Shown piece after piece: positions 628 through 37,349 of a stretch of 64,000 nucleotides of DNA. This stretch comes from Pristiophorus japonicus. Taxonomy: Eukaryota. The DNA is taken from NCBI RefSeq assembly GCF_044704955.1, contig NC_092006.1, positions 4,836,001-4,900,000 on the forward strand, in the 5' to 3' direction. The translations under genes and the position numbers were made by a program. Each line of letters opens with the position of its first letter. The first letter of the stretch is position 1. Under the pieces are notes generated by a model. The model worked only from the letters and a program-made list of their open reading frames with translations, was not told where the DNA came from and ran no database searches.

Positions 628-705
628 TCATATCCATGAGCTGTTCACTTTCCTTTCCTGTCGGACTGTTGGATCCGCCTTAAATGCCAGTTGGGCGTAA
701 AGAGT
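628..705 (-). CDS. Gene A exon 6: TLYAQLAFKADPTVRQERKVNSSWI* (ITIM/ITSM-like)
   Basis: Acceptor ttctgttttctctcatag; phase 0; homologous to 12831-12875 and 37314-37349. Confidence 0.85.
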   Translation of the reverse strand, partial: TLYAQLAFKADPTVRQERKVNSSWI

Positions 706-3700
706 CTATGAGAGAAAACAGAAACCATTATCGCGGCTCACATCATCACCATCGGAACGGAGTGACAGGAGGAGGCCATTCAGCCCCTCGAGCATGTTCC
801 CCCACTCAATAAGATAAGAACATAAGAAATAGGAGCAGGAGTCGGCCATTCGGCCCCTCGAGCCTGCTCCGCCACTTAATGAGATCATGGCCGATCTGAT
901 CATGGACTCAGCTCCACTCCCCTGCCTGCTCCCCATAACCTCTTATCGCCATCGTTCAAGAAACTGTCTATCTCTGTCTTAAATTTATTCAATGTCCCGG
1001 CTTCCACAGCTCTCTGAGGCAGCAAATTCCACAGATTCACAATCCTCTGAGAGAAGAAATTTCTCCTCATCTCAGTTTTAAATGGGCGGCCCCTTATTCT
1101 AAGATCGTGCCCCCTAGTTCTAGTCTCCCCCATCAGTGGAAACATCCTCTCTGCATCCACAGCTGATCCTGTATCTTAACTCACTCTACCCACCTTGGTT
1201 CCCTAACCCTTAATCCCCTTACCCAACAAGAGTCGATCCACCTCTGTCTTGACATTTCCAACTGACCCCTGACCTCGACAGCTTTTTGGGGGAGAGAGTT
1301 CCAGATTCCCGCTCCCCTTTGTGTGAAGAAGTGTTTCCTGTCATCACCCCTGAACGGTCTGGCTCGAAATTTAAGGTGACGTCCCCTTGGTCTGGACTCA
1401 CCCCGCCAAAGGAACTCATTTCTCTCTCTATCCACCTATCGAACACTTTAATCATCATAAACAACTCGATTAGATCGCCCTTTAATCTTCTATACTCCAG
1501 GGAATAAAAGCTTAGTCTGTGCGACCTGTCTTAATAATTTAACGCTTTTAGCCCCTGTATTATTAGTTAGGCCACAGCTGAAGTACTGCGTGCAGCTCTG
1601 GTCACCACATTACAGGAAAGATGTGATTGCACTGGAGAGGGTGCAGAGGAGATTTACCAGGATGTTGCACTGGAGAGGGTGCAGAGGAGATTTACCAGGA
1701 TGTTGCACTAGAGAGGGTGCACAGGAGATTTACCAGGATGTTGCACTAGAGAGGGTACAGAGGAGATTTACCAGGGTGTTGCACTGGAGAGGGTGCAGAG
1801 GAGATTTACCAGGATGTTGCACTGGAGAGGGTGCAGAGGAGATTTACCTGGATGTTGCACTGGAGAGGGTACAGAGGAGATTTACTAGGATGTTGCACTG
1901 GAGAAGGTGCAGAGGAGATTTACCAGGATGTTGCACTGGAGAGGGTGCAGAGGAGATTTACCAGGATGTTGCACTGGAGAGGGTGCAGAGGAGATTTACC
2001 AGGATGTTGCACTAGAGAGGGTGCAGAGGAGATTTACCAGGATGTTGCACTGGAGAGGGTACAGAGGAGATTTACCAGGATGTTGCACTAGAGAGAGTAC
2101 AGAGGAGATTTACCTGGATGTTGCACTGGAGAGGGTACAGAGGAGATTTACTAGGATGTTGCACTGGAGAGGGTGCAGAGGAGATTTACCAGGATGTTGC
2201 ACTAGAGAGGGTGCAGAGGAGATTTACCAGGATGTTGCACTGGAGAGGGTGCAGAGGAGATTTACCAGGATGTTGCACTAGAGAGGGTGCAGAGGAGATT
2301 TACCAGGATGTTGCACTAGAGAGGGTGCAGAGGAGATTTACCAGGATGTTGCACTAGAGAGAGTACCGAGGAGATTTACCAGGATGTTGCACTGGAGAGG
2401 GTACAGAGGAGATTTACTAGGATGTTACACTAGAGAGGGTGCAGAGGAGATTGACCAGGACATTGCACTAGAGAGGGTACAGAGGAGATTTACCAGAATG
2501 TTGCACTAGAGAGGGTACAGAGGAGATTTACCAGGATGTTGCATGGACTGGAGAATTTTAGCGATGAGGAAAGATTGGATAGGCTGGGGGTTGTTTTCTC
2601 TGCAACAGAGGAGGCTGAGGGGAGACCTGATTGAGGTGTATAAAATGATGAGGAGCCTGGATAGAGTGGATAGGACGGACCTGTTTCCCTTGGCAGAGGG
2701 GGTCAACAACCAGTGGGCATAGATTGAAAGTAATTGGGCGGAGGTTTAGAGGGGATTTGAGGGGAAATGTCTTCACCCAGAGGGTGGTGGGGGTCTGGGG
2801 CGGAACTCACTGCCTGAAAGGGTGGTAGAGGCAGAAACCCTCACCACATTTAAAAAGTACCTGGATGTGCACTTGAAGTGCCGTAACCTACAGGGCTACG
2901 GATTGAGAGCGGGAATGTGGGATTAGGCCGGGTGGCTCTTGGTCGGCCGGCGTGGGACACGATGAGCCGAATGGCCTCCTTCCGCGCTGTAAACTTCTGT
3001 GATTCTATGATTATTCTGTCAACTTGTAATTATATATAATCGGCAACTTAAAACATAGACCGATATTTTGTAATCTGTTTTTGCAGTTCTATCAAAATAA
3101 ACTGCTTTCCTGCGGAGTTCATTATGCAAAGTTTTATAGAATCGTTAACTATGAATCTTAACCGTTGGATTAAGGATGAGTGCAGGTAACTGCAAGGTGT
3201 CAAGCAAAGACAATTATTTTCACTCTCACCTCCTTATCTCTTGCACCTGGTCTGGAATCCGTGAATTTCTCATCGCTGGCCGTGTTACCTGAAATAAAGG
3301 GAATGCAATCTAAGTCTAAATGCACACACATTTCACGCTGACATGCACCGAGCCAAACGTTGTTTCCTTCAGGTAATTATCCAACTCCCTTTTGAAAGCC
3401 ACGTTTGAGTCTGCCTCTACCACCCTCTCAGGCAGTATGTTCCAGACCCTAACCACTCGCTGCTTAAAAATAGTTTTTCTTCATTTCGCCTTTGCTTCTT
3501 CTGCCTTAAATCTGTGTCCTCTGCTTCTCCACCCTTCTCCCAACGAGAACAGTTCCTCTCTGTCTGGACCCCTCACGATTTGGCCTTCCTGACTTGGGCA
3601 TAGGTCATTGGGTCACAATCCCGGAATTCCCTCCCTAACAGCACTGTTAGGAGCACCTTCACCACAGCGGACTGTCGAACTCGTTTGGCAGAACGTCTCA

Positions 3701-6700
3701 TCGCCAGAGCTGTCACACAAGCACCAACATGTAGCTTGATTGGCGGTGAGGAGGGCCTTACCCGTCAGAGCCTTCATGCACAGCCGGCGTCTCAGCAGCA
3801 CGGCACGGTGCCCCCGAGTTGGCTGCAGGGCGGACGAGACTGTCACCCATCTCCTTCAGGTTTGCCCCTTCGCAAGGCAGGTTTGGAAAGAGATGCAGTG
3901 GTTGCTGTCGAGGTTCATCCCGAGCAGCTCTGTAACACAGGACTCTGTGCTCTAGGGGCTGTTCCCAGGGACACACACCGAGACAGACATCACCTGCTGC
4001 TGGAGGGCCATCAACTTGGTCAAAGACGCTCTTTGGTCTTGCCGAGACTTGCTGGTCTTCCAGAGCAAGGAGATGTCCACGTCTGCGTGTTGCAGACTGG
4101 CGCAATCCACGATCCAGGATTACGTGCTGAGGGACGCACTTAAAATCGGTGCAGTCGCCGCAAAGGCACGGTGGGGAAGGGCCGCAGTTTAAAGCCCTTC
4201 TGACATGGTAAACCCAGGGGCAGGAATCAGTACAAAACTCCCCTCGGGCCGTACTTGTAACTTCTTTTTTGTGTCCATGGAGCACCATGATCTGTAAACA
4301 CCTGTGTAGTGTCATGTACAATGTAAGGTCTGTTTCGTAATGCACGTTGAAAAGAAAAATGTAAATGTACCGTCACCCATTCCGTGTACTGTATAGTGAC
4401 ACACGTAATGTAATTTGTCGAATGTACTACAAGGTATCCCGTATTGTACCGAATTGTACTTGAACTGAAAAGCAAAGAAATGTATCGAACGGAACTGCCG
4501 TCAGCACCCAAATGTAGTGTATGGGATTGCTGACCGCAGCTAAATGTACTGAACTGCTTTTGAATGTACTGTACAAATTTTTATACGAATAAAGTATATT
4601 TTGAAATTAAAAAAAATAACACAGTAACTGGATAGATTGGCCGCGCCTCTCGACCGCCGCTACCTGACTGCCGGGTCCTGCAGCTCCAGCTCGCCATCAC
4701 CGTCACCATCAGGAGGAGGAGAAGCGCCACCGAGCAAGTCACCAAAACCCATAAACTACAGTCGCTGTGCAGCGGGAGCCCTGTACACAAGGGGGAAAAA
4801 CAGCCTCTTAGTTAAAAGAAAATCCCGTAACCCAAGCCCTCTGCTTCTCGCAGGAGGTTCAGGGAGACCCAATACCATCTTCCAGGGTCCACGAGGGTTA
4901 GATACTCAATACCAAGTCTTCCCAACATCAATAGATAGAGATNNNNNNNNNNNNNNNNNNNNNNNNNNNNNNNNNNNNNNNNNNNNNNNNNNNNNNNNNN
5001 NNNNNNNNNNNNNNNNNNNNNNNNNNNNNNNNNNNNNNNNNNNNNNNNNNNNNNNNNNNNNNNNNNNNNNNNNNNNNNNNNNNNNNNNNNNNNNNNNNNN
5101 NNNNNNNNNNNNNNNNNNNNNNNNNNNNNNNNNNNNNNNNNNNNNNNNNNNNNNNNNNNNNNNNNNNNNNNNNNNNNNNNNNNNNNNNNNNNNNNNNNNN
5201 NNNNNNNNNNNNNNNNNNNNNNNNNNNNNNNNNNNNNNNNNNNNNNNNNNNNNNNNNNNNNNNNNNNNNNNNNNNNNNNGATACGTGTATAGATAGATAG
5301 ACCGACAGATTTATGGATAGACAGACAGATAGATGGATAGATACATCGATAAATCAATAGATAGACAGATAGACAGATATATTTATGGATAGACAGATAG
5401 ATAGATCGACAGACAGACACAGACAGACAGATAGAGGAGGTGCAACGAGACCTGGGTGTCATGGTACATCAGTCATTGAAAGTTGGCATGCAGCTACAGC
5501 AGGTGGTGAAGAAGGCAAATGGCATGTTGGCCTTCATAGCGAGGGGATTTGAGTATAGGAGCAGGGAGGTCTTACTGCAGTTGTACAGGGCCTTGGTGAG
5601 GCCTCACCTGGAATATTGTGTTCAGTTTTGGTCTCCTCATCTGAGGAAGGACATTCTTGCTATTGAGGGAATCAGCAAAGGTACACCAGACTGATTCCCG
5701 GGATGGCAGGACTGACATATCAAAAAAGGCTGGATCGACTAGGCTTATATTCACTGGAATTTAGAAGAATGAGAGGGGATCTCATAGAAACATATAAAAT
5801 TCTGACGGGACTGGACAGGTTAGATGCAGGAAGAATGTTCCCGATGTTGGGGAAGTCCAGAACCAGGGGTCACAGTCTCAGGATAAGGGGTAAGCCATTT
5901 AGGACCGAGATGAGGAGAAACTTCTTCACTCAGAGAATTGTGAACCTGTGGAATTCTCTACCACAGAAAGTTGTTGAGGCCAGTTCGTTGGATATATTCA
6001 AGAGGGAGTTAGATGTGGACCTTACGGCTAAAGGGATCAAGGGGTATGGAGAGAAAGCAGGAATGGGGTACTGAAGTTGAATGATCAGCCATGATCATAT
6101 TGAATGGTGGTGCAGGCTCGAAGGGCCGAATGGCCTGCTCCTGCACCTACTTTCTATGTTTCTATATTTGGACGGACGGATAGATGGTAAACAGACAGAT
6201 AGTTTACAGATAATACAACACTTGGTAAAGCAGTGGATCAGGATGAGGATAATTATAGGCTGCAGGAGAGCACAGACGGGTTGGTGAAATGGCCGTCAGC
6301 ACGGCCGGTGGGGTTCAAAGCGGGGAAGTGTTAAGTGTTTCAGTTTGGGAGGGGTAACATGGACAGACAATGTACTGTGAATGGCATCGAGCGAGGACGT
6401 GATCCACCGGAAATGGCAGTATATTATTCTCCAATTTGACCCATGGATCGCCCAGGAATATACCTGCTCTCCCAGCAGGTAGATATGACCTAGCAGGACA
6501 GAAGGACCTTATAATTGAGAAAGGTAAACATTGAGAGATCTGGGAGAGGTAAATCATTGAGATACTTACACACGAATTTGCAGAAAGGAAGAGAATTTGA
6601 ATGTATAACGTGACAGGGCTAACAATGATCTCTTACATCACCATTGAAGATATTAGTGAAGGAGAATAGTTACCGCTCAGCGATGAGATGCTTTCACTGA

Positions 6701-11009: not shown

Positions 11010-12620
11010 AGAACATAAGACACAGGAGCAGGAGTCGGCCATTTGGCCCCTTGAGCCTGCTCCGCCATTCAATACGATCACGGCTGATCTTCGAACTCAG
11101 CCCCACTTTCCTGCACTGTCTCCTTGATTCCCTTAATATTCCAATATCTGTCTTGAATATACTCAACGACTGAGCCTCCACAGCCCTCTGGGGCAGAGAA
11201 CTCCAAAGATTCACCACCCTCTGAGTGAAGAAATTCCTCCTCATCTCAGTCCTGAAGTTTCTCCTGAATTGCCCCTTGGATTTCTTGGTGACCATCTGAT
11301 ATTGATGGCCTCTAGTTATGCGCTTCTGGCATAGGTGGATACACTCTGTTTGTGTCTACTCGATCAAAACCTTTCATAATTTTAAAGACCTCGTCTGTGC
11401 TGTAAGGTGATTCTAATAGCAGGTAAATTCCTCCAGAATTTTGCTGAAGATATCATTGCACTGCATTATTGAAAAGCGCAATTTGAATTTAAAATAATCC
11501 ACTTTTAATACTAAATGTGACAGGGTTCATTCCCAGGATACAACCAGAGAACGCCCTGGATCCACTTACACACCAGCTTTGCCAACAATGCCCCGGAGTC
11601 AGTGCCTGAGCTACCCTGTGGGTCCTTGGTTTCACTGACACACCGCACACATTTGTTCTTTCAATCTGTGCTGTAAATCGGCCGCAGAGATATTCTGAGC
11701 GCATCTGGACCGAGCGATCAAAGAGCAGGATTCACATCCACAACGCTGGGGTTTCAAAACCAGTTTAATTTATCTGTAAACATTACATATGAATTATATC
11801 ACGTGCTGTATAAAGATGTACTCAGCACAGAAACCACAAATACAAGAATTTGGCATTACAATACTTGAAATTAGTTGAGTATATTCAAGACGGAGAGCGA
11901 TATAGGAGCAGGAGTTGGCCATTCGGCCCCTTGAGCCTGCTCCGCCATTTAATACCATCATGGCCGCTCTGATCATGGACTCAGCTCCCCTTCCCTGCCC
12001 GTTCCTCATAACCCTTTACTCCCTTATCGCTCAAAAATCTGTCTATCTCTGTCTTAAATATATTCGATGACCCAGCTTCCACAGCTCTCTGAGGCAGCGA
12101 ATTCCACAGATTTACAACCCTCTGAGAGAAGAAATTCCTCCTCATCTCAGTTTTAAGTGGGTGGCCCCTTATTCTGAGACTATGCCCCCCAGTTTTAGTT
12201 TCGCCTATGAGTGGAAACATCCTCTCTGCATCGACCTTGTCGAGCCCCCTCATTATCTTATATGTTTCCATTAGATCACCTCTCGTTCTTCTGAACTCCA
12301 ATGAGTAGAGGCCCAACCTACTCAACCTATCCTCATAAGTCAACCCCCTCCGGAATCAGCCGAGTGAACCTTCTCTGAACACCCTCCAATGCAAGTATAT
12401 CCTTCCTTAAATACGGAGACCAAAACTGCACGCAGTACTCCAGGTGTGGCCTCACCAATACCCTGTACAGTTGTAGCAGGACTTCTCTGCTTTTATACTC
12501 CATCCCCCTTGCAATAAGGCCAACATTCCATTCCAGTTGAGATCGAAGATTGGCCATGATCTTATTGAATGGCGGAGCAGGCTCGAGGAGCCAAATGGCC
12601 TCCTCCTGCTCCTAATTCGT
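11010..12620 (-). mobile_element. CR1 fragments (11010-11390 and 11901-12530 minus; 12531-12620 plus-strand 3' end), separated by non-repeat DNA
   Basis: CR1 RT C-terminal motifs in the ORF track. Confidence 0.75.
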
Positions 12621-12830
12621 ATATTCTAAAATAGAGATTAAACTGAACAGTAACCGACATATCATCGTAAGAACAGTGGCCCAACACAACGCTATGTAAG
12701 AGTCCATTTCAATGGTAGAGTTTTCGATTGGACCCAATTGGGAAATCGCGCCCAAACTATGTTTGAAATTGCATCGACTGTCCGGCAAAACAGAGGAAGC
12801 TTTGCACTCCATATCGTCTTTCCTTTCCCA

Positions 12831-12875
12831 TCAGAGTGTTGGCTCCGTGTTAAATGCCAGCTGGGCATAAAGAGT
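12831..12875 (-). CDS. Gene B terminal exon TLYAQLAFNTEPTL*
   Basis: Acceptor ttctgttttctctcacag, nearly identical to the gene A exon 6 acceptor and 5' end. Confidence 0.83.
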   Translation of the reverse strand, partial: TLYAQLAFNTEPTL

Positions 12876-15800
12876 CTGTGAGAGAAAACAGAAACAATTA
12901 CCACGGCCCACATCTTCAGCGTCGGAACAGTGGGACAGGAGAGGGCCATTCAGCCCCTCGAGCCTGTTCCCCCATTCAGTTTGATCATGGCTAATGTGTA
13001 TCTGAACTCCATCCGCCCGCCTTAAATACCCTCGCCCAACACCAATCTTTCATCGCAGTTTTGAACATTTCAATTGACCCTCAGCCTCAACAACTTTATG
13101 AGGGAGAGAGTTCCAGGTTCCCGCGGCCTTTTGTCTGAAGATGTGTTTCCTGACATCACCCCTGAACGGCCGGGCTCGAATTTTAAGGTCAAGCCCCCTT
13201 GTTCTGGACTCCCCAGACTCTCTCAAATTCTCTAATCATCTTAAATATCTCGATTACATCACCCTGTAATCTACACTCGAGGGAAAACAAGGCCAGTCTA
13301 AGAACATAAGAACATAAGATTTAGGAGCAGGAGTCAGCCATTCGGGCCCCTCGAGCCTGCTCCGCCATTCAATGAGATCACGGCTGACCTTCGACCTCAA
13401 CTCCACTTTCCTGCCCCATCTCCATATCCCCTGTTCCCCTAGACTCCGAAAATCTCTCGATCTCAGCCTTGAATATACTCAACGACTGAGCCTCCACAGC
13501 CCTCTGGGGCAGAGAATTCCAAAGATTCACCACCCTCTGAGTGAAGAAATTCCTCCTCATCTCAGTCCTAAATGGCCGAGCCCTTATCCTGAGACTTTGT
13601 GACCCCTGGTTCTAGACTCCCCAGCCCTGATATGATTCAATGAGATCACATCTCATTCTTCTAAACTCCAGAGAGTATGGGCCCAGTCGACTCAACAGGT
13701 ATATGCAACCTGTCCCATAATATAACCCTTTTAGCATGTTGGGACATTTTATTGGTTGTTGATAGCGCAGGTATAATTGTAGTGAATCGGCAATCTGTGG
13801 TTATTTATAATTACTGACTTAAAATATCCAAATATAGATATTTGAATTTACTTTTAAATAAAAGGTGAATTTGTTTATTCGTTCCTGGGATGTGGGCATG
13901 GCTGGCAAGGCCGGCATTTATTGCCCATCCCTAATTGCCCCTTGAGAAGGTGGTGGTGAGCCGCCTTCTTGAACCACAGAGGGTGGTTAAGCACCATTCA
14001 AATCGCTGTGGGTCTGGAGTCACGTATCAACCAGACCGGGTAAGGGGCAGTAGATTTCCGTGATTTCCTTCCCTGAAACATTCGGCCCTTCGAGCCTGCA
14101 CCACCATTCAATATGATCATGGCTGATCATGCAACTTCAGTACCCCTTTCCTGCTTTCTCTCCATACCCCTTGATCCCTTTAGCCAAAAGGGCCACATCT
14201 AACTCCCTTTTGAATATATCCAACGAACTGGCCTCAACAACTTTCTGTGGTAGAGAATTCCACAGGTTCACAATTCTCTGAGTGAAGAAGTTTCTCCTCA
14301 TCTCGGTCCTAAATGGCTTACCCCTTATCCTGAGACTGTGACCCCTGGTTCTGGACTTCCTCAACATTGGGAACATTCTTCCTGCATCTAGCCTGTCCAA
14401 TCCCGTCAGAATTTTATATGTTTCGATGAGATTCCCCTCTCATTCTTCTAAATTCCAGTGAATATAAGCCTAGTCGATCCAGTCTTTCTTCATATGTCAG
14501 TCCTGCCATCCCGGGAATCAGTCTGGTGAACCTTCGCTGCACTCCCTCAATAGCAAGAATGTCCTTCCTCAGATTAGGAGACCAAAACTGCACACAATAC
14601 TCAAGGTGTGGCCTCACTGAGGCCCTGTAGGAGGGCAATGGCACAAAGCCAGGTCGCTGATTGCAGTGCGGGCAGGCACAGCAGGAGGGGCGACGGAGCA
14701 GCAAGACTCCGTAGAGGGAAGTGATTGAGGCCCAAGAGAGGCATGAATCTGGGGCCCAGAAGAGGCGAGGGCCCAGCCCACACTGTGCGATATGTGCGCG
14801 CACTAGGCCCGTGCAGCAGAGCTGGTCTCCAGTCGTCCTGGTTCACCCTTGCCCCTGGACCAAGACCTCACTCTGTCAAGCCCATGTGGTGGCTGGTGTG
14901 CAACGGTCACCCCACGTTAAAAAAACCCACCCACAGGGGCCTTCCACCCTTCAGGATGTAGTTCGGGATCTAGAATTTTAGGTTCTTTATTGAAACACTG
15001 TGAACTCATCCCTTTTTTGGCATGGAATCAAGCCATACTCACTTCGAGGGACTGCCTATAATGATGATACAACTGCAGTAAGACCTCCCTGTTCCTATAC
15101 TCAAATCCCCTATACTGTCCTATACTCAAAGACATTAGTGACACCAGATGGGTTTTTACAATCTGGTAGTTTTATGGTCACCGTTACTTTTTAATTCCAC
15201 ATTTATTTGATTAATTGAATTTAAACTTCTCACCTACCATGGTGGGATTGGAATTCGGGTCCCCGGGATTAATAGTCCAGGCGCCTGGATTACTAGCCCG
15301 CTGACATAACCACTATGCTACCGTTCTGTCGTGTTAAGCGAAGACAGCTCTTTTCCTATCTACCGCCTGGAACAGCGAACCACCCTGCAAGCGGATAAAT
15401 TGGGAGTGCGGAGGAGTTTGAAGCACCTTGCGACCATCCCTACCTGACTGCCGCTCCGGACAGCCGCCACAGACACCATCAGGAGCAGGAGAAGCGCCGC
15501 CAACAAATTCAGGACCAACCGCAATCCGCAGGCGCTCTGTGACGGAGACACTGCAAGAAAAGAGCTTTTTTAAAGAAAAAGGACGTTTCTGCAAAGAGTT
15601 AAACAAGTGCAGCCACCGAGCAAATCTGCTTGTGGAATTTCACACAAAACATTTTGCATAGTTCCCCAGCGAGCAGATATCTGAGAGGCCCCTGCTTACC
15701 GATAACTTTGCAATTAACAAGGACTGCGATGTTGCGATAGACAGGCAGACACGGGCAGACACCTGAGAGATAGACAGATAAGAACACAAGAAATAGGAGC

Positions 15801-18800
15801 AGGAGTCGGCCATTTGGCTCCACAGCTGGTCTGGTCTCGGGCTCAGCTCTACTTCCCTGTCTGATAGATAGACAGACAGACATAGAGATAGAGATAGAGA
15901 GAGAGTTAGAGAGTTAGAGAGAGAGAGGGAGATAGAGAGAGAGAGAGAGGGAGATAGATAGATAGAGAGTTAGAGAGAGAGAGATAGATAGATAGAGAGT
16001 TAGAGATAGAGAGTTAGAGTTAGAGATAGAGAGTTAGAGATAGAGATAGAGAGTTAGAGATAGAGATAGAGAGTTAGAGATAGAGATAGAGAGTTAGAGA
16101 TAGAGAGTTAGAGATAGAGAGTTAGAGATAGAGAGTTAGAGAGATAGATAGATAGAGTTAGAGATAGAGAGTTAGAGATAGAGAGTTAGAGAGATAGATC
16201 GATTGGATAGGCTGGGTTGTTTTCTTTGGAACAGAGGAGACTGAGGGGCGACCTTATTGAGGTGTATAAAATTATGAGGGGCCTGGATAGAGTGGATAGG
16301 ACAGACCTGTTTCCCTTGGCAGAGGGGTCAACAACCAGGGGTCACAGATTGAAAGTAATTGGGAGGAGGTTTAGAGGGGATTTGAGGGGAAATGTCTTCA
16401 CCCAGAGGGTGGCGGGGGTCTGGGGTGGAACTCACTGCCTGAAAGGGTGGTAGAGGCAGAAACCCTCACCACATTTAAAAAGCACCTGGATGTGCGCTTG
16501 AAGTTCCGTAACCTACAGGGCTACGGACTGAGAGCTGGAAAGTGGGATTAGGCTGGGTGGCTCTTTGTCGGCCGGCGCAGACATGATGGGCCGAATGACC
16601 TCCTTCCATGCTGTAAATTTCTATGATTCTAGGATAGACATCGCGATAGAACACAGCACAGTGGAAATGTAATCACATTTTCGACTTTTAAGCAGGGAGG
16701 TACCTTACTCCGAACATTTATTCCCTAGCTAGACAGATAGACTTCAAAATTCAGCAAGGTAGACACTGAAACATTGAGAGATATGTGATAGGGAGATCAT
16801 GGTATAATTATACACGGAGACGCAGAAAAGGACGTAAGAATATAAGAACATAAGAAATAGGAGCAGGAGTCGGCCATTCGGCCCCTCGAGCCTGCTCCGC
16901 CATTCAATACGATCCTGGCTGATCCGATCATGGACTCAGCTCCACTTCCCCGCCCACTCCCCATAACCCTTCACTTCCTTATCGCTCAAAAATCTGTCTA
17001 TCTCCACCTTATATATATTCAATGTCCCAGCCTCCACAGCTCTCTGGAGCCGAGAATTCCACAGATTTACAACCCTCTGAGAGAAGAAATTCCTCCTCAT
17101 CTCAGTTTTAAATGGGCGGCCCCTTATTCTGAGACTATGCCCCCTAGTTCTAGTCTCCCCCATCAGTGGAAACATCCTCTCTGCATCCACCTTGTCGAGC
17201 CCCCTCATTATCTTATACGTTTCGATAAGATCACCTCTCATTCTTCTGAACTCCAATGAGTAGAGACCCAACCTGCTCAACCTTACCTAAGAAGTCAACC
17301 CCCTCATCTCCGAAATCAACCAAGTGAACCTTCTCTGAACTGCCTCCAGTGCAAGTATATCCTTCCTTAAATACGGAGACCAAAACTGCACGCAGTACTC
17401 CAGGTGTGGCCTCACCAATACCCTCTCCAGTTGTAGCAGGACTTCTCTGCTTTTATACTCTATCCCCCTTGCAATAAAGGCCAAGATTCCATTCCAGTTG
17501 AGGTCTAAGATTGGCCGTGATCTTATTGAATGGCAGAGCAGGCTCGAGGGGCCGAATGGCCTCCTCCTGCTCCTAATTCGTATATTCTAAAATAGAGGTT
17601 AGACTGAACAGTAACCGACATATCGTAGAGGGTTGTTGAGGCCAGTCTGTTAGATATATTAAAGAGGAAGCTAGATATGGCCCTTACAGCTAAAGGGATC
17701 AAGGGGTATGGAGAGAAAGCAGGAATGGGGTACTGAGGTGAATGATCAGCCATGATCATATTGAATGGTGGTGCAGGCTCGAAGGGCCGAATGGCCTACT
17801 CCTGCACATATTTTCTATGTTTCTATGTAAGGACAGTGGCTAAATACAGCGCTATGTATTCTGAATTCCCTGTCATTCTTCTGAACTCCAGTCCTTCAAT
17901 ATACAAAAAGTTGCGAAGAAGTGAGACTCACATCACCATTGAAGATATTAGTGAAGGGGACACCGGCCACAGTTACCTCCCGGAGATGCGACGCTTTCAC
18001 TCAGGAGATCCCCGGTGGCGTTGATCGGAACGGTGCAAGTGCAGACGGCGCCGCTGCGCCAGGTTTCGGCCGAGACGCTCAGGACGCTTCTGGCGGTATA
18101 GCTCCCGTCCGGCTCCAGCCTGCCGGGCTCGCTCCGTCCCTCGGCGGCCCGTCCCGCAACCAGCCAGCGGATGGGGAAGGAGTCCGGAGCAGCGCCCCGC
18201 ACCAGACACATCAAGGGCACTCTCTCCAGCCGGGGAATCTCAGCCGGCGGTGGCGTTAAGAGGAAGAGGACCGGGGGGCCCGCTAGATGGAAGAGAAATT
18301 GGAATTAACCAGGCGCACAAGGTAGGTTTAAATTGGTGTCTCGACGCACAATTGGATGGACGAGTGGGATTACCTGTGATCACCAGCGTGGTGCCAGTCC
18401 CGAATATCAGGGACCGATTCCTGGCGTTTGGAGCAGCGCAGTAATACCGCCCAGAATCGCTCCTCTGGACGTTGTCAATGACCAGCGAATAATTCCCCGA
18501 TTGCTCGCATACCTCGCCGGAAAATCTTCCCCCGGGCCTCACGAACCGTCCGGTTTTGTAAACAATCCGCATGCCCTCTCGGTGCCAGTGTGTGTACCAG
18601 TAAACGATGCCCGGGGCCAGCCTCCCGGTCTGGCATTGCAGTTTGACCAGGCTCGCGACATCGGCCGTTAGCAGCGCCGGAAATTGGCTCAAGACCGCCT
18701 GAGACACGACAGCTGAGACAAGGTTGCGGGGGGGGGGGACACAAAAATTAAAAAAAACACAATATTAACAACAGGTTATAGGCCCCCGAGTCACCCTGGA

Positions 18801-21800
18801 TACCGACACATCTCAAATTCCCCTCCACTGGCGCGTCGGGAGCGCGTGTGGGACATTCCGCCGCGCTGCGCACCGTTAAATTGCGCCTCTCCGCCCGCAA
18901 TTCCCACAGGCGCACAGTCCGAGTCCGTTCGCTGTGAAATCCGCTCCAATCATTGGCGAGCACCATGGCGACTGGCTGCAGTTAAGATTGCAAAATCCTT
19001 CTCCCAAACCGATTATGCTTCCCCTGGTCTAACCCGGCTCTCCAATCCATCTCTCCAGGGGTTGGGGACCGGGGGGCGCTTGATTGTGTTAAAATGGGGC
19101 GATAGCTTTCTCACTAATTCCACTAGACAGGCCCCCCTCTCCCAACGGTAGACCCTCGCCTTCAAATACCGGAGTTCACTGACAACTTTATCTCAGTTAG
19201 GGGGCAGTTCAGTGTCACATTCGCTTCCACTCACCCATCACAATGTTCGGCTCCAAAGTCGCGCTATCGGTATTGAGCGAAGCCCGCACACCTTTATACT
19301 TTGCCCAATATCTAATCTGCTTCTTAAAAAAATTATAGTTAAACGCAAACTTGTGTATCAGCGAACGATGCAACACAGGAGGCCATTCGGCCCATCAAAC
19401 CTGTGTTGTGCCGGCTCTGTGACAGAGCGACTCAATCATTCCCACTCCGCCCCTGCTCTTTCCCCACAGCCCGGCATATTGCCTCCTTTCCAAATATTTA
19501 TCCAATTCCCCCGTTTGAAAGTCACTTTTTCATCTGCTCCCAGTGCCCCTTTCAGGCAGCGCGTTCCCGAGCACAAGCTCTCAGGGCTTGAAATCACGTC
19601 CTGAACTCCCCCTCTGGTTCTGTTACCGATTATCTTAAACAAGTGTCCTCTGCTTCCCCACCCTCCTCCCACTGGAAACAATCTCTCCTTCTTTACTCGA
19701 TCGGAAACCTTCTCCTTATTAATTCTATAAAAACCCTTCTCCTTATTAATTCTCTCCAAAACCCTTCTCCTTATTAATTCTCTCCAAAACCCGTCTAAAA
19801 TCCAAAATCCAAAAGAGTAGGAGTAAACGGGTACTTTTCAGAATGGCAGGCAGTGACTAGTGGAGTGCCGCAAGGTTCTGTGCTGGGGCCCCAGCTGTTT
19901 ACATTGTACATTAATGATTTAGACGAGGGGATTAAATGCAGTATCTCCAAATTTGCGGATGATACTAAGTTGGGTGGCAGTGTGAGCTGCGAGGAGGATG
20001 CTATTAGGCTGCAGAGTGACTTGGATAGGTTAGGTGAGTGGGCAAATGCATGGCAGATGAAGTATAATGTGGATAAATGTGAGGTTATCCACTTTGGTGG
20101 TAAAAACAGAGAGACAGACTATTATCTGAATGGTGACAGATTAGGAAAAGGGAAGGTGCAACGAGACCTGGGTGTCATGGTACATCAGTCATTGAAGGTT
20201 GGCATGCAGGTACAGCAGGCGGTTAAGAAAGCAAATGGCATGTTGGCCTTCATAGCGAGGGGATTTGAATACAGGGGCAGGGAGGTGTTGCTACAGTTGT
20301 ACAGGGCCTTGGTGAGGCCACACCTGGAGTATTGTGTACAGTTTTGGTCTCCTAACTTGAGGAAGGACATTCTTGCTATTGAGGGAGTGCAGCGAAGGTT
20401 CACCAGACTGATTCCCGGGATGGCGGGACTGACCTATCAAGAAAGATTGGATCAACTGGACTTGTATTCACTGGAGTTCAGAAGAATGAGAGGGGACCTC
20501 ATAGAAACGTTTAAAATTCTGACGGGTTTAGACAGGTTAGATGCAGAAAGAATGTTCCCAATGTTGGGGGAGTCCAGAACCAGGGGTCACAGTCTGAGGA
20601 TAAGGGGTAAGCCATTTAGGACCGAGATGAGGAGAAACTTCTTCACCCAGAGAGTGGTGAACCTGTGGAATTCTCTACCACAGAAAGTAGTTGAGGCCAA
20701 TTCACTAAATATATTCAAAAGGGAGTTAGATGAAGTCCTTACTACTCGGGGGATCAAGGGTTATGGCGAGAAAGCAGGAAGGGGGTACTGAAGTTTCATG
20801 TTCAGCCATGAACTCATTGAATGGCGGTGCAGGCTAGAAGGGCTGAATGGCCTGCTCCTGCACCTATTTTCTATGTTTCTATGTTTCTATGTCTCCTTAT
20901 TAATTCTCTCCAAAACCCTTCTCCTTATTAATTCGCTCCAAAACCCTTCTCCTTATTAATTCGCTCCAAAACCCTTCTCCTTATTAATTCTCTACAAAAT
21001 CCTTCCCCTTATTAATTCGCTCCAAAACCCTTCTCCTTATTAATTCTAACCAAAACCCTTCTCCTTATTAATTCTCTCCAAAACCCTTCTCCTTATTAAT
21101 TCGCTCCAAAACCCTTCTCCTTATTAATTCGCTCCAAAACCCTTCTCCTTATTAATTCTCTACAAAATCCTTCCCCTTATTAATTCGCTCCAAAACCCTT
21201 CTCCTTATTAATTCTAACCAAAACCTTTCTCCTTATTAATTCGCTCCAAAACCCTTCTCCTTATTAATTCTAACCAAAACCCTTCTCCTTATTAATTATC
21301 TCCAAAATCGTTCTCCTTATTAATTCGCTCCAAAACCCTTCTCCTTATTAATTCTAACCAAAACCCTTCTCCTTATTAATTCTCTCCAAAACCCTTCTCC
21401 TTATTAATTCTATCCAAAACCCTTCTCATTATTAATTCACTCCAAAACCCTTCTCCTTATTAATTCTCTCCAAAATCCTTCTCATTATTAATTCTCTCCA
21501 AAACCCTTCTCATTATTAATTCTCTCCAAAACCCTTCTCCTTATTAATTCTATCCAAAATCCTCCTCCTTATTAATTCTCTCCAAAACCCTCCTCCTTAT
21601 TAATTCTCTCCAAAACCCTTCTCCTTATTAATTCTATCCAAAACCCTTCTCCTTATTAATTCTATCCAAAACCCTCCTCCTTATTAATTCTCTCCAAAAC
21701 CCTTCTCCTTATTAATTCTCTCCAAGACCCTTCTCCTTATTAATTCTCTCCAAGACCCTTCTCCTTATTAATTCTCTCCAAAACCCTTCTCCTTATTAAT

Positions 21801-22901
21801 TCTCTCCAAAACCCTTCTCCTTATTAATTCTATCCAAAACCCTTCTCCTTATTAATTCTCTCCAAAACCCTTCTCCTTATTAATTCTCTCCAAAACCCTT
21901 CTCATTATTAATTCTCTCCAAAACCCTTCTCCTTATTAATTCTCTCCAAAACCCTTCTCCTTATTAATTCGATCCAAAACCCTCCTCCTTATTAATTCTC
22001 TCCAAAACCCTTCTCCTTATTAATTCTCTCCAAGACCCTTCTCCTTATTAATTCTCTCCAAGACCCTTCTCCTTATTAATTCTCTCCAAAACCCTTCTCC
22101 TCATTAATTCTCTCCAAAACCCTTCTCCTTATTAATTCTATCCAAAACCCTTGTCCTTATTAATTCTCTCCAAAATCCTCCTCCTTATTAATTCTCTCCA
22201 AAACCCTTCTCATTATTAATTCTCTCCAAAACCCTTATCCTTATTAATTCTATCCAAAATCCTCCTCCTTATTAATTCTCTCCAAAACCCTCCTCCTTAT
22301 TAATTCTCTCCAAAACCCTTCTCCTTCTTAATTCTCTCCAAAACCCTTCTCCTTCCTAATTCTATCCAAAACCCTTCTCCTTATTAATTCTATTCAAAAC
22401 CCTCCTCCTTATTAATTCTCTCCAAAACCCTTCTCCTTATTAATTCTCTCCAAGACCCTTCTCCTTATTAATTCTCTCCAAGACCCTTCTCCTTATTAAT
22501 TCTCTCCAAAACCCTTCTCCTTATTAATTCTCTCCAAAACCCTTCTCCTTATTAATTCTATCCAAAAACCTTCCCATTATTAATTCTCTCCAAAACCCTT
22601 CTCCTCATTAATTCTATCCAAAACCCTTCTCCTTATTAATTCTCTCCAAAACCCTTTTCCTTATTAATTCTCTCAAAAACCCTTCTCCTTATTAATTCTC
22701 TCCAAAACCCTTTTCCTTATTAATTCTCTCAAAAACCCTTCTCCTTATTAATTCTCTCCAAAACCCTTTTCCTTATTAATTCGCTCCAAAACCCTTCCCT
22801 TGGTTGACTCTCTCCTAACCCCTTCCCCACTCTGGCAAAACATCGAAGGCTATCTCACCTTGGAAGAGATGGAACAGCACACAGAGACCACAGAAGCTCA
22901 T
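12831..22901 (-). CDS. Gene B: non-rearranging VJ-C1-TM-ITIM receptor, 5 coding exons, 279 aa
   Basis: Exons 22901-22859, 18712-18374, 18282-17977, 15550-15444 and 12875-12831. Total 840 nt, open frame. Confidence 0.85.
12935..14628 (-). mobile_element. CR1 fragments (12935-13735, 14078-14628) and a LINE/SINE 3' end (13870-14075) in the last intron of gene B
   Basis: RRNFFTQR motifs; CR1 tails. Confidence 0.7.
14629..15068 (+). mobile_element. Probable non-autonomous element with an RTE-type 3' tail
   Basis: Ends cgagggactgcctataatgatgat, like the RTE 3' end at 9380-9405; the body is non-coding. Confidence 0.45.
15444..15550 (-). CDS. Gene B stalk and TM exon (V)SPSQSACGLRLVLNLLAALLLLLMVSVAAVRSGSQ
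   Basis: Acceptor ctcttttcttgcag, donor cag|gtaggg; 107 nt ending in phase 0; homologous to gene A exon 4 minus 10 nt. Confidence 0.85.
15860..16200. repeat. Compound microsatellite (AGAGAT/AGAGTT)n
   Basis: Direct observation. Confidence 0.95.
16200..17828. mobile_element. CR1 fragments in gene B intron 3 (16200-16630 plus, 16835-17490 minus, 17628-17828 plus)
   Basis: CR1 RT C-terminal ORFs and tails. Confidence 0.8.
17977..18282 (-). CDS. Gene B C1-type Ig domain exon
   Basis: 306 nt; (A)[54 protein letters not shown]..; ag| and |gtaact ends. Confidence 0.93.
18374..18712 (-). CDS. Gene B VJ exon
   Basis: 339 nt; [41 protein letters not shown]; donor acag|gtaatc. Confidence 0.94.
19705..22800. 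repeat. 28-bp minisatellite CCTTCTCCTTATTAATTCTCTCCAAAAC in gene B intron 1, interrupted by a CR1
   Basis: Period 28; about 68 copies in 20893-22800 plus about 3 before the insertion. Confidence 0.95.
19811..20892 (+). mobile_element. Young 5'-truncated CR1 (uninterrupted 312-aa RT C-terminal ORF)
   Basis: GVPQGSVLGP..FADD..; (TTCTATGT)n tail; same subfamily as 38404-41256 and 51587-55130. Confidence 0.95.
22859..22901 (-). CDS. Gene B leader exon [14 protein letters not shown]
   Basis: ATG plus 43 nt, donor caag|gtgaga; splicing gives [26 protein letters not shown]. Confidence 0.83.
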
Positions 22902-22984
22902 TATCCCTGCCCCAGGAGGGTTGAACTCTGATGCTGGGACTGGCAGCTCAGGGAGGAATGCTTGTCAGCAGGTCGGTGCGAGGC

Positions 22985-23145
22985 TGGTGTGAAATGCCGA
23001 GCCAATTGTGGTAAGCACGCACTGTGTTTATTAATAAATGTACGATTTGGGCTGCAAAATAGTGCCGAAGCAGAAAGCTCTGTGTGGGTTTCCTGTTTTT
23101 ACAGGTAAAGAGATGAAACACACACACACCATCTGTGTTACAGAA
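22985..23145 (-). promoter_or_regulatory. Gene B proximal promoter
   Basis: AACAGGAAACCCACA at 23083-23097 (minus strand), TTTATTAATAAA, GCATTTCAC. Confidence 0.5.
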
Positions 23146-23599
23146 GGCACCTCGTCTCTACGCATGTTAGTTTGACCACACTTGGAGCACTGCGCACGGT
23201 TCTGGTCTCCATCTTTCAAAAGAATATAGAGGCACTGGAGCGGGTGTAAACAAGATTCAGAAAGATGACACCAGAACTGAGAGAGGTTATACTGATCAGG
23301 AAAGGCTGGACAGACTGGGGCACTTTTCTCCAGAAAATTACATAGTATGCACATCACAAAAACAGACCATTCAGCCCCACCGCTCCGTGCCGGGGTTTAT
23401 GCTCCACACCAGCCCCTCCCACCTCTCTCCATCTCACCCCATTCGCCATATCCTTCTATTCCTTTCTCCCTCATGTGTTTATCCAGCCTCCCCTTAAATA
23501 CATCGATACTATTCGCCTCAACCCCTCCCTATGGCAGCGAGTTCCACATCTCAGCGCTCTCTGGGTCAAGAAGTTTCTCCTGAATTCCCCATTGGGTTT

Positions 23600-32900: not shown

Positions 32901-35900
32901 AATTTCCGGCGCTGCTAACGGCCGATGTCGGGAGCCTGGTCAAACTGCAATGCCAGTCCGGGAGGCTGGCCCCGGGCATCGTTTACTGGTACACACACTG
33001 GCCCCGAGAGGGCATGCGGCTCGTTTACAAAACCGGACGGTTCGTGACGCCCGGGGGAAGATTTTCCGGCGAGGTATGCAAGCAATCGGGGAATTATTCG
33101 CTGGTCATTGACAATGTCCAGAGGAACGATTCTGGGCGGTATTACTGCGCTGCTCCAAACGCCGGGAATCGGACCCTGATATTCGGGACTGGCACCACGC
33201 TGGTGATCACAGGTAATCCCACACGCCCATCCAATTGTGCGTCGAGACACCAATTCAAACCTGCCTTGTGCGCCTGGTTAATTCCAATTTCCCTTCCATC
33301 TAGCGGGCCCCCCGGTCCTCTTCCTCTTAACGCCGCCGCCGGCTGAGATTCCCCGGCTGGAGAGGGTGCCCTTGATGTGTCTGGTGCGGGGCGCTGCTCC
33401 TGACTCCTCCCCCATCCGCTGGCTGGTTGCGGGACGGGCCGCCGAGGGACGGAGCGAGCCCGGGACGCTGGAGCCGGACGGGAGCTATACCGCCAGAAGC
33501 GTCCTGAGCGTCTCGGCCGAAACCTGGCGCAGCGGCGCCGTCTGCACTTGCACCGTTCCGATCAACGCCACCGGGGATCTCCTGAGTGAAAGCGTCGCGT
33601 CTCCGGGAGGTAACTGGAGCTACTGGCGGTTTGCCAAATAGTTAGTGATAATAATGTTCATTATAGTATTGCTGGGATGTGAGGGTTTTTTTTGCACGAG
33701 AGATTGTGTAGAATGGGCCTATGTTCTCTGGAGTTTCGTATAAGATGATGAGGGGGCTTGACAAGCTGGATGCAGAGAGGATGTTTCCACTGATGGGGGA
33801 GTCTAGAACTAGAGGGCATAATCTCAGAATAAGGGGCCGCCCATTTAAAACTGAGATGAGGAGGAATTTCTTCTCTGAGGGTTGTAAATCTGTGGAATTC
33901 GCTGCCTCAGAGAGCTGTGGAAGCCGGGACATTGAGTAAATTTACGATAGAAATAGACAGTTTCTTAACTGATAAGTAATTAAGGGGTTATGGGGAGCGG
34001 GCAGGGAAGTGGAGCTGAGTCCATGATCGGATCAGCCATGATCGTATTGAATGGCGGAGCAGGCTCGAGGGGCCGAATGGCCGACTCCTGCTCCTATTTC
34101 TTATGTTCTTATGGAGTTTCGAAGAAGGAGAGGTGATCTCATTGAAACGTACAAGACTCTGAGGGGGATTGACAGGGTGGATGCAGGGAGGGTGTTTCCC
34201 CCCGGGGCTGGGGAGTCTAGAACCAGGGGTCACACAGTCTCAGGGTAAGGGGTTGGCCATTTAAGACTAAGATGGGGAGAACGTTCTTCACTTGCGATTT
34301 ACTACGTTACAGGCGCTATATAAATATAAGTTGTTGTATATTGGGAGCACTAGTATGGAAAAGTAGTATTTTATAAATGACATGAGTTTGGAAAACAGCG
34401 AGACAGAGAGAGACCATATACACAAACCTGTAAATGTGGGAAGGGCAGGTTGGCGAGCTGGTTAAACTGGCTTACGGGGTACTTGAATTTATATAAGGAG
34501 ATATTGGAACAGTTGACCAAAAGCTTGGTCAAAGAGGGAGGTTTTACAGAAGGAGGAGAGGCGGAGAGGTTTAGGGAGAGAGTTCCAGAGCTTGGGGCCC
34601 CAGGCAGCTGAAGGCACGGCCACCAATGGTGGAGCGATAGAAATCGGGGGGAATGCTCAAGAGGCCAGGATTGGAAGAGCGCAGAGATCACAGCCACTTA
34701 CGTTGAGACAGTTCATAGTTCGTCACCATGTCTTTGATGATTCGGGCCAAAAACCAGCTTCAAACCCTCAGCGGACGAGGTTTCAGAATTTGACTGAATT
34801 ATTTTGTGTTTCGCTCATTTCACAAGAGTTGTCTTTCTGCCGTTCAGAGCCCCTTCACAGCTCGACCTGCCGCTTCGCGCTTTATGCCAGCCTGGCGATG
34901 GCTCCTCTTGTGATGGGGTTGATCGGTGTCGCGGTGGCACGGCGTGGCAAGACTCGCCAACCAGGTACTGCCCGTCTGAGCCAAACCCTCAATTTCGCCT
35001 TTAGCTGAACCTCTCCCTTTGGCGTGCCGGCCTGGACATTAACGCCAGTCATCTTCTTAAACCTAGAGAGTGCAGCCACGACTGACCGAGGTACCGCTTC
35101 AAGAATAAAGAAAGCAGAAGAGGAGGTAGGTGCCACAAAGATGGGAGATGTTATTTTCATTAAAGAGCGGGGGGCGGGACTAATTGGATCATGCTTTCAA
35201 AGAGCCGACACAAGCTCGAAGGGCCAACTAGCCTCCTTCTGTGCTGTAAGATTCTATACTGGTGTCAAGTGTTTCATTGGTGTCCATGGACATGTCCGTT
35301 GTCAGTAACTTCAATGAGACATTCACATTAATACACTTGTGCCTCTCTCAGAAACAACCCAAAGCTATTCACCTGCAATGAATTGCATAAGAACATAAGA
35401 ACATAAGAATTAGGAACAGGAGTAGGCCATCTAGCCCCTCAAGCCTGCTCCACCATTCAACAAGACCATGGCTGATCTGGACGTGGACTCAGCTCCACTT
35501 ACCCGCCCGCTCCCGTAACCCTTAATTCCCTTATTGGTTAAAAATCTATCTATCTGTGACTTGAATGCATTCAATGAGCTAGCCTCAACTGCTTCCTTGG
35601 GCAGAGAATTCCACAGATTCACAACCCTCTGGGAGAAGAAATTCCTTCTCAACTCGGTTTTAAATTGGCTCCCCCGTATTTTGAGGCTGTGCCCCCTAGT
35701 TCTAGTCTCCCCGACCAGTGGAAACAAACTCTCTGCCTCTATCTTGTCTATCCCTTTCATTATTTTAAATGTTTCTAGAAGATCACCCCTCATCCTTCTG
35801 AACTCCAACGAGTAAAGACCCAGTCTACTCAATCTATCATCATAAGGTCACCCCCTCATCTCCGGAATCAGCCGAGTGAATCGTCTCTGTACCCCCTCCA

Positions 35901-37349
35901 AAGCCAGTATATCCTTCCTTAAGTAAGGTGACCAAAACTGCACGCAGTACTACAGGTGCGGCCTCACCAATACCCTATACAGTTGCAGAAGGACCTCCCT
36001 GCTTTTGTACTCCATCCCTCTCGCAATGAAGGCCAACATTCCATTCGCCTTCCTGATTACCTACTGCACCTGCAAACTAACTTTTTGGGATTCATGCACA
36101 AGGACCCCCAGGTCCCTCTGCACCGCAGCATGTTGTAATTTCTCCCCATTCAAATAATATTCCCTTTTACTGTTTTTCTTCCCAAGGTGGATGACCTCAC
36201 ACTTTCCGACATTGTATTCCATCTGCCAAACCTTAGCCCATTCGCTTAACCTATCTAAATCTCTTTGCAACAGTGATGTCTTGCATTTAAATAGCGCCTT
36301 TGATGTCCTAAGGCGCTTCACAGGAGCATTAGTCAGACAAAAATTAAAGGTCGAACCCCACGAGGAGAGATTACGACAGGTGAGCAAAGGCTTGGCCGAG
36401 GAGGGAGGTTTTAAGGAGGAGAGAGGGGCGGAGAGGTTTAGGGAGGGAGTTCCAGAGCTTGGGGCCCAGGCAGCTGAAGGCACGGCCACCGATGGTGGAG
36501 CGATTATAATCAGGGATGGTCAAGAGGGCAGAATTGGAGGAGCAGTAGGAGATAGGGAGGGATGTAGGTGCTGGAGGAGAGTACAGAGATAAGGAGGGGT
36601 GTATGGGCTGGAGGAGATTACAGAGATAGAGAGGGGTGTAGGGGCTGGAGCAGGTTACAGAGATAGGGAGGGGTGTAGGGGTTGGAGGGGGTTACAGAGA
36701 TAGGGAGGGGTGTAGGGGTTGGAGGGGGTTACAGAGATAGGGAGGGGTGTAGGGGCTAAAGGAGGTCACAGAGATAGGGAGGGATGTAGGGGCTGGAGGA
36801 GGTTACAGAGTTAGGGAGGGATGTAGAGGCTGGAGGAGGTTGCAGAGATAGGGAGGGGTGTAGGGCTGGAGGAGAGGCAGTACTGAGGGAGCGCCGCACT
36901 GTCGGAGGAGCAGTACTGAGGGAACACCGCACTGTCGGAGGGACCGTCTTTCGGCTGAGACGTTAAACCGAGGCACCATCTGCCCTCTCGGTTGTAAAAG
37001 ATCTATTGGAAGAAGAGCAGGGGGAGTTCTCCCCGGTGTCCTGGGGCCAATATTTATCCCTCAACCAACATCACTAAAAACAGATGATCCGGGTCATTAT
37101 CACATTGCTGTGTGTGGGAGCTTGCTGTGCGCAAATTGAGCTGCCGCGTTTCCCACAATACAACAGTGACTGCACTTCAAAAAGTACTTCATTGGCTGTA
37201 AGGCGCTTTGGGACGACCGGTGGTGGTGAAGGGCGCTATAGAAATGCACGTCTATTTCTTTTCAATATAGTTGAGCAGGAAGGTAACGGTTTTCTCGTGT
37301 TGTTCCTTCACAGACTATGTACGCGCACCTGGCATTCGCTGTGGATTAG
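29898..37349 (+). CDS. Gene C: non-rearranging VJ-C1-TM-ITIM receptor, 6 coding exons, 299 aa
   Basis: Exons 29898-29940, 32874-33212, 33304-33609, 34848-34964, 35067-35125 and 37314-37349. Total 900 nt, open frame; AATAAA at 37562. Confidence 0.9.
30001..31880. repeat. 28-bp minisatellite (reverse complement of 19705-22800) in gene C intron 1, about 67 copies
   Basis: (GGTTTTGGAKAGAATTAATAAGGAGAAG)n running into a CR1 remnant at 31880-32220. Confidence 0.95.
32874..33212 (+). CDS. Gene C VJ exon
   Basis: 339 nt; [28 protein letters not shown]; cag| and |gtaatc ends. Confidence 0.94.
33304..33609 (+). CDS. Gene C C1-type Ig domain exon
   Basis: 306 nt; 7 nt differences from the gene B C1 exon by hand count. 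Confidence 0.93.
33735..34295 (+). mobile_element. Nested CR1 3' fragments in gene C intron 3
   Basis: [17 protein letters not shown]..; tail tcttatgttcttatg. Confidence 0.85.
34490..34690 (-). mobile_element. L2-like LINE 3' fragment (also at 36270-36545 and 48930-49180)
   Basis: Minus strand [15 protein letters not shown]-type C-terminus found at three sites. Confidence 0.6.
34848..34964 (+). CDS. Gene C stalk and TM exon (E)[38 protein letters not shown]
   Basis: Acceptor ctttctgccgttcag, donor ccag|gtactg; 117 nt as in gene A; shares PLHS..C and TRQ with gene A. Confidence 0.87.
35067..35125 (+). CDS. Gene C 59-nt cytoplasmic exon (E)[19 protein letters not shown]
   Basis: Acceptor tcttcttaaacctag, donor gag|gtaggt; phase 1 to 0. 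Confidence 0.8.
35386..36270 (-). mobile_element. CR1 3' fragment
   Basis: [32 protein letters not shown]; (TAAGAACA)n. Confidence 0.9.
36545..36875. repeat. 37-bp minisatellite GGGAGGGGTGTAGGGGYTGGAGGRGGTTACAGAGATA, about 9 copies
   Basis: Period 37 read directly; continuous with the L2-like fragment. Confidence 0.85.
36876..37262 (+). mobile_element. Deu-domain SINE, 5'-truncated, ending about 50 nt before the gene C terminal exon
   Basis: Matches 27700-28065. Confidence 0.8.
37314..37349 (+). CDS. Gene C terminal exon [11 protein letters not shown]
   Basis: Acceptor tgttgttccttcacag; TxYxxLAF as in A and B. Confidence 0.85.
   Translation, partial: TMYAHLAFAVD

Follow-up and report, generated by a model that had tools for sequence, protein, structure and literature searches.

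A VJ-C1 receptor gene of Pristiophorus japonicus with a predicted short, tyrosine-bearing tail after loss of a 59-nt exon and a 10-nt deletion

Non-rearranging VJ-C1 receptors of the IgSF, or PRARP, were reportedly described by Fu et al. in 2019. The family has been little studied and is regarded as similar to the ancestral form from which antibodies and T-cell receptors came; PRARP-like tails carry one tyrosine motif, and PRARP shows synteny with the human 1q21-23/CD1 region. Among tyrosine motifs of receptor tails, the ITIM consensus is (S/I/V/L)xYxx(I/V/L), and the Lamp1 signal has a glycine before its tyrosine and lies at the C terminus. Paired immune receptors include SIRP, LILR, KIR and NITR, in which the usual short partner has a charged residue in its transmembrane (TM) segment and no tyrosine.

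In PMC10751288 and PMC11599192, PRARP and non-rearranging VJ-C1 receptors are named, and the latter gives V and J joined in one exon as a feature of these receptors and TxYxxV/I as the ITSM consensus. Pairs of compensatory frameshifting mutations (pCFM) are, in Biba, Klink and Bazykin 2022 (PMC8935012), assigned with high confidence to five vertebrate genes and are biased to gene ends and to young and less conserved genes, only indels of 1-2 nt having been counted. The distance of a motif from the membrane is also known to matter: in vitro, SHP-1 binds at a lower rate, is less active and reaches less far when the ITIM tether is short (PMC5365251), and the spacing of the tyrosine from the membrane decides the lysosomal sorting of Lamp1 and matters little for its uptake (PMC2199866).

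The window analysed here, i.e. the whole stretch of 64,000 nucleotides of P. japonicus DNA, holds three genes of such a family (Table 1). We hold it on balance probable that one of them, gene B, is a VJ-C1 receptor with an in-frame tail of 19 residues and a tyrosine 8 residues out, a state likely reached stepwise. No published description of this cluster or of the gene B tail was found in the literature searched, outside of which the defining J Immunol papers lay.

Architecture of the genes and their array

By architecture, genes A, B and C are best classed as non-rearranging VJ-C1 (PRARP-like) receptors. The gene models have V and J in one exon, a single C1-set domain, a TM segment and a one-tyrosine tail, and a crude consensus scan for RSS gave 0 heptamer-spacer-nonamer matches up to 150 nt from the V exon in any of the three genes. 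Protein searches returned no hit named PRARP, and VJ-C1 relatives were found in sharks, rays, sturgeon, paddlefish, lungfish, caecilian and turtles. In a tree whose deep support is weak, the V-C1 proteins of turtle, caecilian, lungfish and sturgeon branch outside the clades formed by the shark sequences. One of four markers of the human 1q21-23/CD1 region, PRCC, is on the same contig (C32); PIGM is on C5, and nicastrin and PEX19 had no match anywhere in the genome.

The gene C model is letter-identical to a database protein labelled P. japonicus (P0004), whose leader peptide is also that of gene B. A run search listed no run of RNA and only one run, X1, of unrecorded kind (share 0.26; placed on 12600-18800). 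A spliced contig of X1 joins the V, C1, 117-nt TM and last exons of gene C with exactly 59 letters between the TM and last exons (record 191-249), so the reference architecture is seen in spliced sequence. The 59-nt piece itself is unlisted in the record, where a bin depth of 12.6 fits 34.5 x 59/161, and none of the 15 joints shown (of 33) is a skip joint for gene C. A spliced V-C1 contig that X1 placed over 12600-18800 proved to be C-type; the run gave no cover of 15498-15704 or 12600-12806, a blank that says nothing on gene B expression.

The three genes belong to a unit of four (D+ A- B- C+, by strand); C32 carries 12 such units within 4.71-6.0 Mb, with 48 C1 exons and a repeat length of 110 kb. 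This 12-fold array of non-rearranging VJ-C1 receptor units is a large expansion, undescribed as far as the literature was searched. Five units are a duplicate at an offset of 559,609 bp, with 0 mismatches in the five 10-kb stretches compared (50 kb), and the duplicate (about 4.82-5.38 and 5.38-5.94 Mb of C32) is either an assembly duplication or a very recent event; since five B copies are letter-identical duplicates, the B copies count as 7 independent ones. Gene D lies just outside the window (L038 1033-8330; C32:4823032-4830330) and is a divergent member of the V-C1 type; its TM exon has 102 nt and is followed by what look like three small tail exons, with provisional borders, and by a last exon reading ...FYASLQF.

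The heads of genes B and C form a head-to-head inverted repeat, 97.5% identical over 1829 nt (17970-23520 vs 29280-33616), with identities of 92% in the V exon and 98% in the C1 exon. The homology stops a few bases beyond the C1 donor (17970/33616), and the TM and tail exons of the two genes are unrelated. Gene C tails are almost invariant among copies, and heads vary. The first introns of B (20890-22830) and C (29970-31900) are each filled by about 1.9 kb of 28-bp tandem repeats. In P0011, a model of a C copy, an alternative upstream exon from the pre-V intron replaces the leader, and B contains this stretch as well (18914-18713 region).

Table 1. Features of the VJ-C1 genes (positions are those of the window unless a contig is named)
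Feature	Position	Strand	Details
Window	C32:4836001-4900000		5.9-Gb genome; holds genes A, B and C of one family
Gene A	8375 to 628	minus	leader, joined VJ, C1, TM and tail exons
Gene B	22901 to 12831	minus	leader, joined VJ, C1, TM and tail exons
Gene C	29898 to 37349	plus	leader, joined VJ, C1, TM and tail exons
Gene A TM exon	4664..4780	minus	117 nt, phase 1 in / 1 out; reference state
Gene A tail exon	3230..3288	minus	59 nt, phase 1/0; encodes a peptide that horn shark models match
Gene A last exon, coding part	628..705	minus	reads TLYAQLAFKADPTV...
Gene B leader exon	22859..22901	minus	43 nt, ATG..AG/GT, phase 1
Gene B joined VJ exon	18374..18712	minus	339 nt; Pfam V-set E 9.6e-11
Gene B C1-set exon	17977..18282	minus	306 nt; Pfam C1-set E 1.5e-9
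Gene B TM exon	15444..15550	minus	107 nt, phase 1 in / 0 out; donor CAG/GTAGGG
10-nt deletion site vs A	15453..15454	minus	from A-B alignment; placement ambiguous within repeated GCAG
Possible 21-nt remnant	starts 15384	minus	AG at 15386-15385; in frame
Vestige of 59-nt exon 3' end, donor and downstream intron	15331..15368	minus	GCG/GTAGAT, 5/9
Possible 3-nt remnant exon GCG	15364..15366	minus	AG at 15368-15367; in frame
Repeat block in gene B intron	13876..15321	minus	by eye, a SINE interrupted by nested LINE pieces
Gene B last exon, coding part	12831..12875	minus	TLYAQLAFNTEPTL and stop; acceptor ...TTTTCTCTCACAG
Gene C TM exon	34848..34964	plus	117 nt; joined in spliced contig of run X1
Gene C tail exon	35067..35125	plus	59 nt, phase 1/0
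Gene C last exon, coding part	37314..37349	plus	seen in spliced contig of run X1

Two lesions and the predicted tail of gene B

The TM exons of genes A and B are both bounded by AG..GT, and their sizes and outgoing phases were reproduced as an earlier note on this DNA had read them. The only gap in a global alignment of the two has 10 nt and lies directly upstream of the final 10 nt and the donor, which both genes share. In sequences of A copies, the stretch deleted from B is flanked by two GCAG ten bases apart, a likely slippage substrate, and because the deletion has the length of this spacing it is mutationally accessible. The deletion also took the post-TM cysteine and basic cluster of the family (RSCRKRQS to RSGSQ), and the new frame covers just three codons (GSQ). 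All 12 B copies, 7 of them independent, have the 107-nt TM exon and no 59-nt exon by BLAST, a genome search with the B TM region found these 12 places only, and the 117+59 architecture is kept in 7/7 A and 7/7 C copies examined (12 of each are present). Sequencing error as the source of the deletion was ruled out by its presence in 7 independent copies.

The earlier note had found no homologue of the 59-nt exon between 12876 and 15443, and this holds for an intact exon: nucleotide alignment of the A exon (3230-3288) and the C exon (35067-35125) to this intron gave chance-level or repeat matches, with a best score of 43 for the A exon inside a LINE piece (2/200 shuffles) and a match no better than shuffles for the C exon (162/200). 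A profile of the tail segments of 22 relatives scored at best 6.7 in the intron against a shuffle maximum of 10.4, and scored 36.2 on the A exon and 5.8, likewise not above shuffles, on the C exon. Since the nucleotide and profile sensitivity controls both failed or were marginal at the A-C distance, absence can be claimed only for an exon whose distance from A is about that of the other tail exons of B. The best nucleotide matches of the A exon, at 13471-13420 and 13297-13203, were rejected as LINE-derived chance matches, and an exon hidden under masked N was ruled out, as both N runs of the window lie in gene A introns and the B intron has none.

Where the claim of no homologue did not stand is at 15368-15331, a vestige to which the last 5 nt of the A exon, its donor and ~33 nt of downstream intron align over 29/39 columns. 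The match was reached in 0/1000 shuffles against the whole B intron and was the best non-self place among 1752 window tiles, for a query that was picked after the hit had been seen and was the best of 22 sliding 45-mers. The vestige is present in 7/7 independent B copies, its donor lying 80 nt below the TM donor in B vs 161 nt in C, and because this donor and its downstream intron survive so close to the TM donor, it was a small deletion at this spot that removed the exon. The loss was not due to the repeats that take up the remainder of the B intron, 61% of which matches repeats elsewhere in the window (BLAST within the window). Further down the intron, A 3108-3006 and B 13876-13772 are colinear, a match that alone is not significant (59/500 shuffles) and that reaches 7/1000 when the repeat block is cut out.

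The order in which the exon and the 10 nt were lost is undatable, and as both lie within about 100 bp, they could have gone in one event. A single clustered repair event, with no frameshifted intermediate at any time, would also fit with the lack of a single-lesion intermediate among the 12/12 B copies, but we consider it very unlikely: the TM donor and about 60 nt of intron between the lesions were retained and still align with A (21/500 shuffles), and the region is 25-35% diverged, which leaves time enough for separate events.

Joining the TM donor at 15444 to 12875 gives a predicted junction that reads ...AVRSGSQ-TLYAQLAFNTEPTL up to the stop. Its translation agrees with the sum put forward earlier, 10+59=69 nt in frame to TLYAQL, as a prediction from DNA; with the possible remnants retained, the sums would be 10+56=66 or 10+38=48, again triplet. 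The tail thus predicted has 19 residues. Counted from the charged residue that first follows the hydrophobic run, its tyrosine is the 8th, close to the previous figure of about 7 residues from the membrane, and the corresponding distance is 28 in A and 31 in C. TLYAQL is not an ITSM, having leucine at +3, nor an ITIM, having threonine at -2; motifs of this type read as an ITIM/ITSM hybrid common to the family.

Competing splice sites were scored by a crude consensus count. The TM donor of gene B has 7/9 matches and is identical to that of one A copy; a cryptic donor at +17 (AAG/GTGCTT) also has 7/9, the vestigial donor alone, at +80 nt, has 5/9, and use of either loses the motif. Read-through of the 15444 donor would add a 27-residue extension without tyrosine. 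It is very doubtful that such an extended TM exon or read-through, with its tyrosine-less tail, is the main product of gene B: the +17 and +80 sites are present in all copies examined and +17 scores like the TM donor, but the 15444 donor is the homologue of the one used by A and has the GTRAG-type G at +5 that both other sites lack. No other candidate exon in the B intron passed a crude acceptor/donor screen. In the ancestral 117-nt phase, the +80 route would have been open and in frame, a possible stepping stone, though this is about a 1-in-10 chance event.

At the stop after PTL (12833-12831), 4 of the 7 independent B copies have TGA and the other 3 (L022, L023 and L025) have CGA, with 8 residues after the motif under the TGA stop and about 80 in the CGA copies. 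The last-exon reading of the CGA copies runs to 83-87 residues and has a second tyrosine (DSYIAL) and a hydrophobic run from repeat DNA.

Relatives, selection and decay

Tail lengths were compared across 40 family proteins, these being the database proteins with an apparent TM segment (TM-less models, D-like proteins and non-shark hits were left out). The tyrosine lies 21-33 residues out in 34 of the 40 and at 15 in one (sawfish P0045), and five have no tyrosine. Two horn shark models, P0008 and P0009, have the leader type of gene B, an ...NENPTL or NEDPTL end and a full tail; since these and the other shark and ray relatives keep the long tail, the short tail of B is derived. Exon sizes, the 12 copies and the reading of the junction all support the earlier proposal that two individually frameshifting lesions compensate each other in this derived state. 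A chimera of a C head and an A tail was considered and is not needed, as the horn shark models combine a B-type head with this tail. P0045, as modelled, is a member of the A clade with an independently shortened tail that keeps STYASL.

No B-type protein of another species was found in protein database searches, in which gene A of this genome is missing too. Three of the five tyrosine-less relatives (horn shark P0012, isoform X3, and P0020; Mustelus P0022) read the last exon in a shifted frame, as a skip of the 59-nt exon would give. The same skip in gene A would read RQSDSLRPTGI, and the V domain of P0020 is sister to that of the full-tailed P0008 (100/98). These automatic models suggest that a one-lesion, tyrosine-less state is tolerated. 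With a stop in the last exon, nonsense-mediated decay is not expected.

The frame of gene B is restored exactly, as the earlier note had said, but two frameshifting lesions cancel with probability 1/2 and all B copies stem from one event, so that the fit is worth about one bit. The same note had taken the fit to suggest selection to keep the tyrosine motif, and this step goes beyond the data, in view of the even odds, the accessible 10-nt slip, the models of tyrosine-less relatives and pN/pS values that are not distinct. Selection of this kind is plausible all the same. In its full form, with the second lesion fixed because the motif was needed and gene B still a working inhibitory receptor, we find it somewhat unlikely. 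TLYAQLAF and its acceptor are intact in 7/7 independent B copies, A and B differ in the 8 motif codons by two synonymous changes only, and the shortened tail of P0045 (tyrosine at 15) also keeps the motif; against this, motif conservation carries no statistical power over 24 nt in copies that differ by 1-3%, the two synonymous changes may be older than the lesions, relatives have models of skipped tails that lack tyrosine, and P0045, of the A-type clade, is itself an unverified model.

In the opposite case, the frame would fit by chance only: gene B would have lost its tail exon, drifted and been carried along in the 110-kb unit while decaying, its motif being left either for lack of time or by gene conversion of the last exon from A. 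This case starts from the 1-in-2 prior and draws on lesions among the copies. Premature stops occur in 2/7 B, 2/7 A and 0/7 C copies, one B copy has a 30-nt deletion in C1 and has lost the juxtamembrane cysteine (Cys-to-Tyr), and another has Leu-to-His in the TM segment. In all, stops or lesions affect 4/7 B copies, beside the polymorphic stop, but 3/7 (window, L023 and L031) have no visible lesion from V to the last exon. All 5 variant TM codons among B copies are non-synonymous, and by a crude count with leaders excluded, pN/pS among copies is 0.82 in B; A (0.66) and C (0.79) are similar, so the comparison of copies does not separate B. The region of the last exon, together with adjoining intron sequence (12928-12834 vs 758-664), is about 85% identical between genes A and B, with 45/53 identical positions in the intron before it and 22/24 in the motif, as opposed to 66% in the TM exon (64/97), a difference that may hint at later gene conversion. 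On the other hand, B retains its own NTEPTL end and not the KADPTV of A, and its TM segment has stayed hydrophobic although it differs from A by non-synonymous codon changes at 17/32. Decay with a chance fit is, in our judgement, unlikely.

Proposed origin and comparison with known systems

In the stepwise origin that we favour, the two lesions would have come separately, on the lineage of B and ahead of the expansion of the array, by way of tolerated intermediates. Whichever came first would only have replaced the tail by one that lacks the tyrosine and stops in the last exon, as in the exon-skipped models of relatives, and the second would, at even odds, have brought TLYAQL back into frame. 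The functional steps that might follow are inferred: the short tether would likely give weaker SHP-1/2 recruitment, and with it a weaker brake, and would likely expose YAQL, which matches the YXX-hydrophobic pattern of sorting signals, as an AP-2-type internalisation motif.

A bolder proposal, which we regard as quite unlikely, is that B and C are a receptor pair with the same VJ-C1 head, kept alike by the inverted arrangement, in which C has a long inhibitory tail and the same tyrosine serves B as a membrane-proximal internalisation signal, reached through a compensated loss that froze a pre-existing skip isoform. If true, an exon loss and a small deletion would have changed the role of a motif only by moving it. 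An activating receptor acting through the TM arginine of B was considered weak, as 20 hydrophobic residues follow this arginine. With nearly identical ectodomains, B and C are a natural long-tail/short-tail pair in which the effect of tyrosine-to-membrane distance is testable. The case by itself shows neither selection nor function; it is a clean one in that a non-triplet exon loss is one of the partners, the ancestral state is adjacent, a vestige is visible and the uncompensated state is modelled in relatives.

Among described systems, the PRARP-like receptors share with these genes the joined VJ exon, the one C1 domain, a membrane-proximal cysteine at the TM segment and one terminal xYAxL motif, a likeness of architecture. 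The locus differs from them in its four-gene unit repeated 12 times and in the tail of B, a third of the family length. Gene B resembles the pCFM genes in that two non-triplet lesions cancel near the 3' end of a young, weakly conserved gene, but its lesions are a 10-nt deletion and a non-triplet exon loss rather than indels of 1-2 nt, and its derived state is predicted from DNA; no compensated case of exon loss plus indel was found in the literature searched.

Gene B is like Lamp1 in its short type I tail and in the spacing of its YXXL, about 8 residues from the membrane, and unlike it in having leucine rather than glycine before the tyrosine, 8 or more residues after the motif and only one basic anchor residue. 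It departs from the usual short partner of paired receptors in keeping its tyrosine and in having its arginine at the outer end of a run of 20 hydrophobic residues. B and C resemble such pairs in that they share nearly the same ectodomain and have unrelated TM segments and tails.
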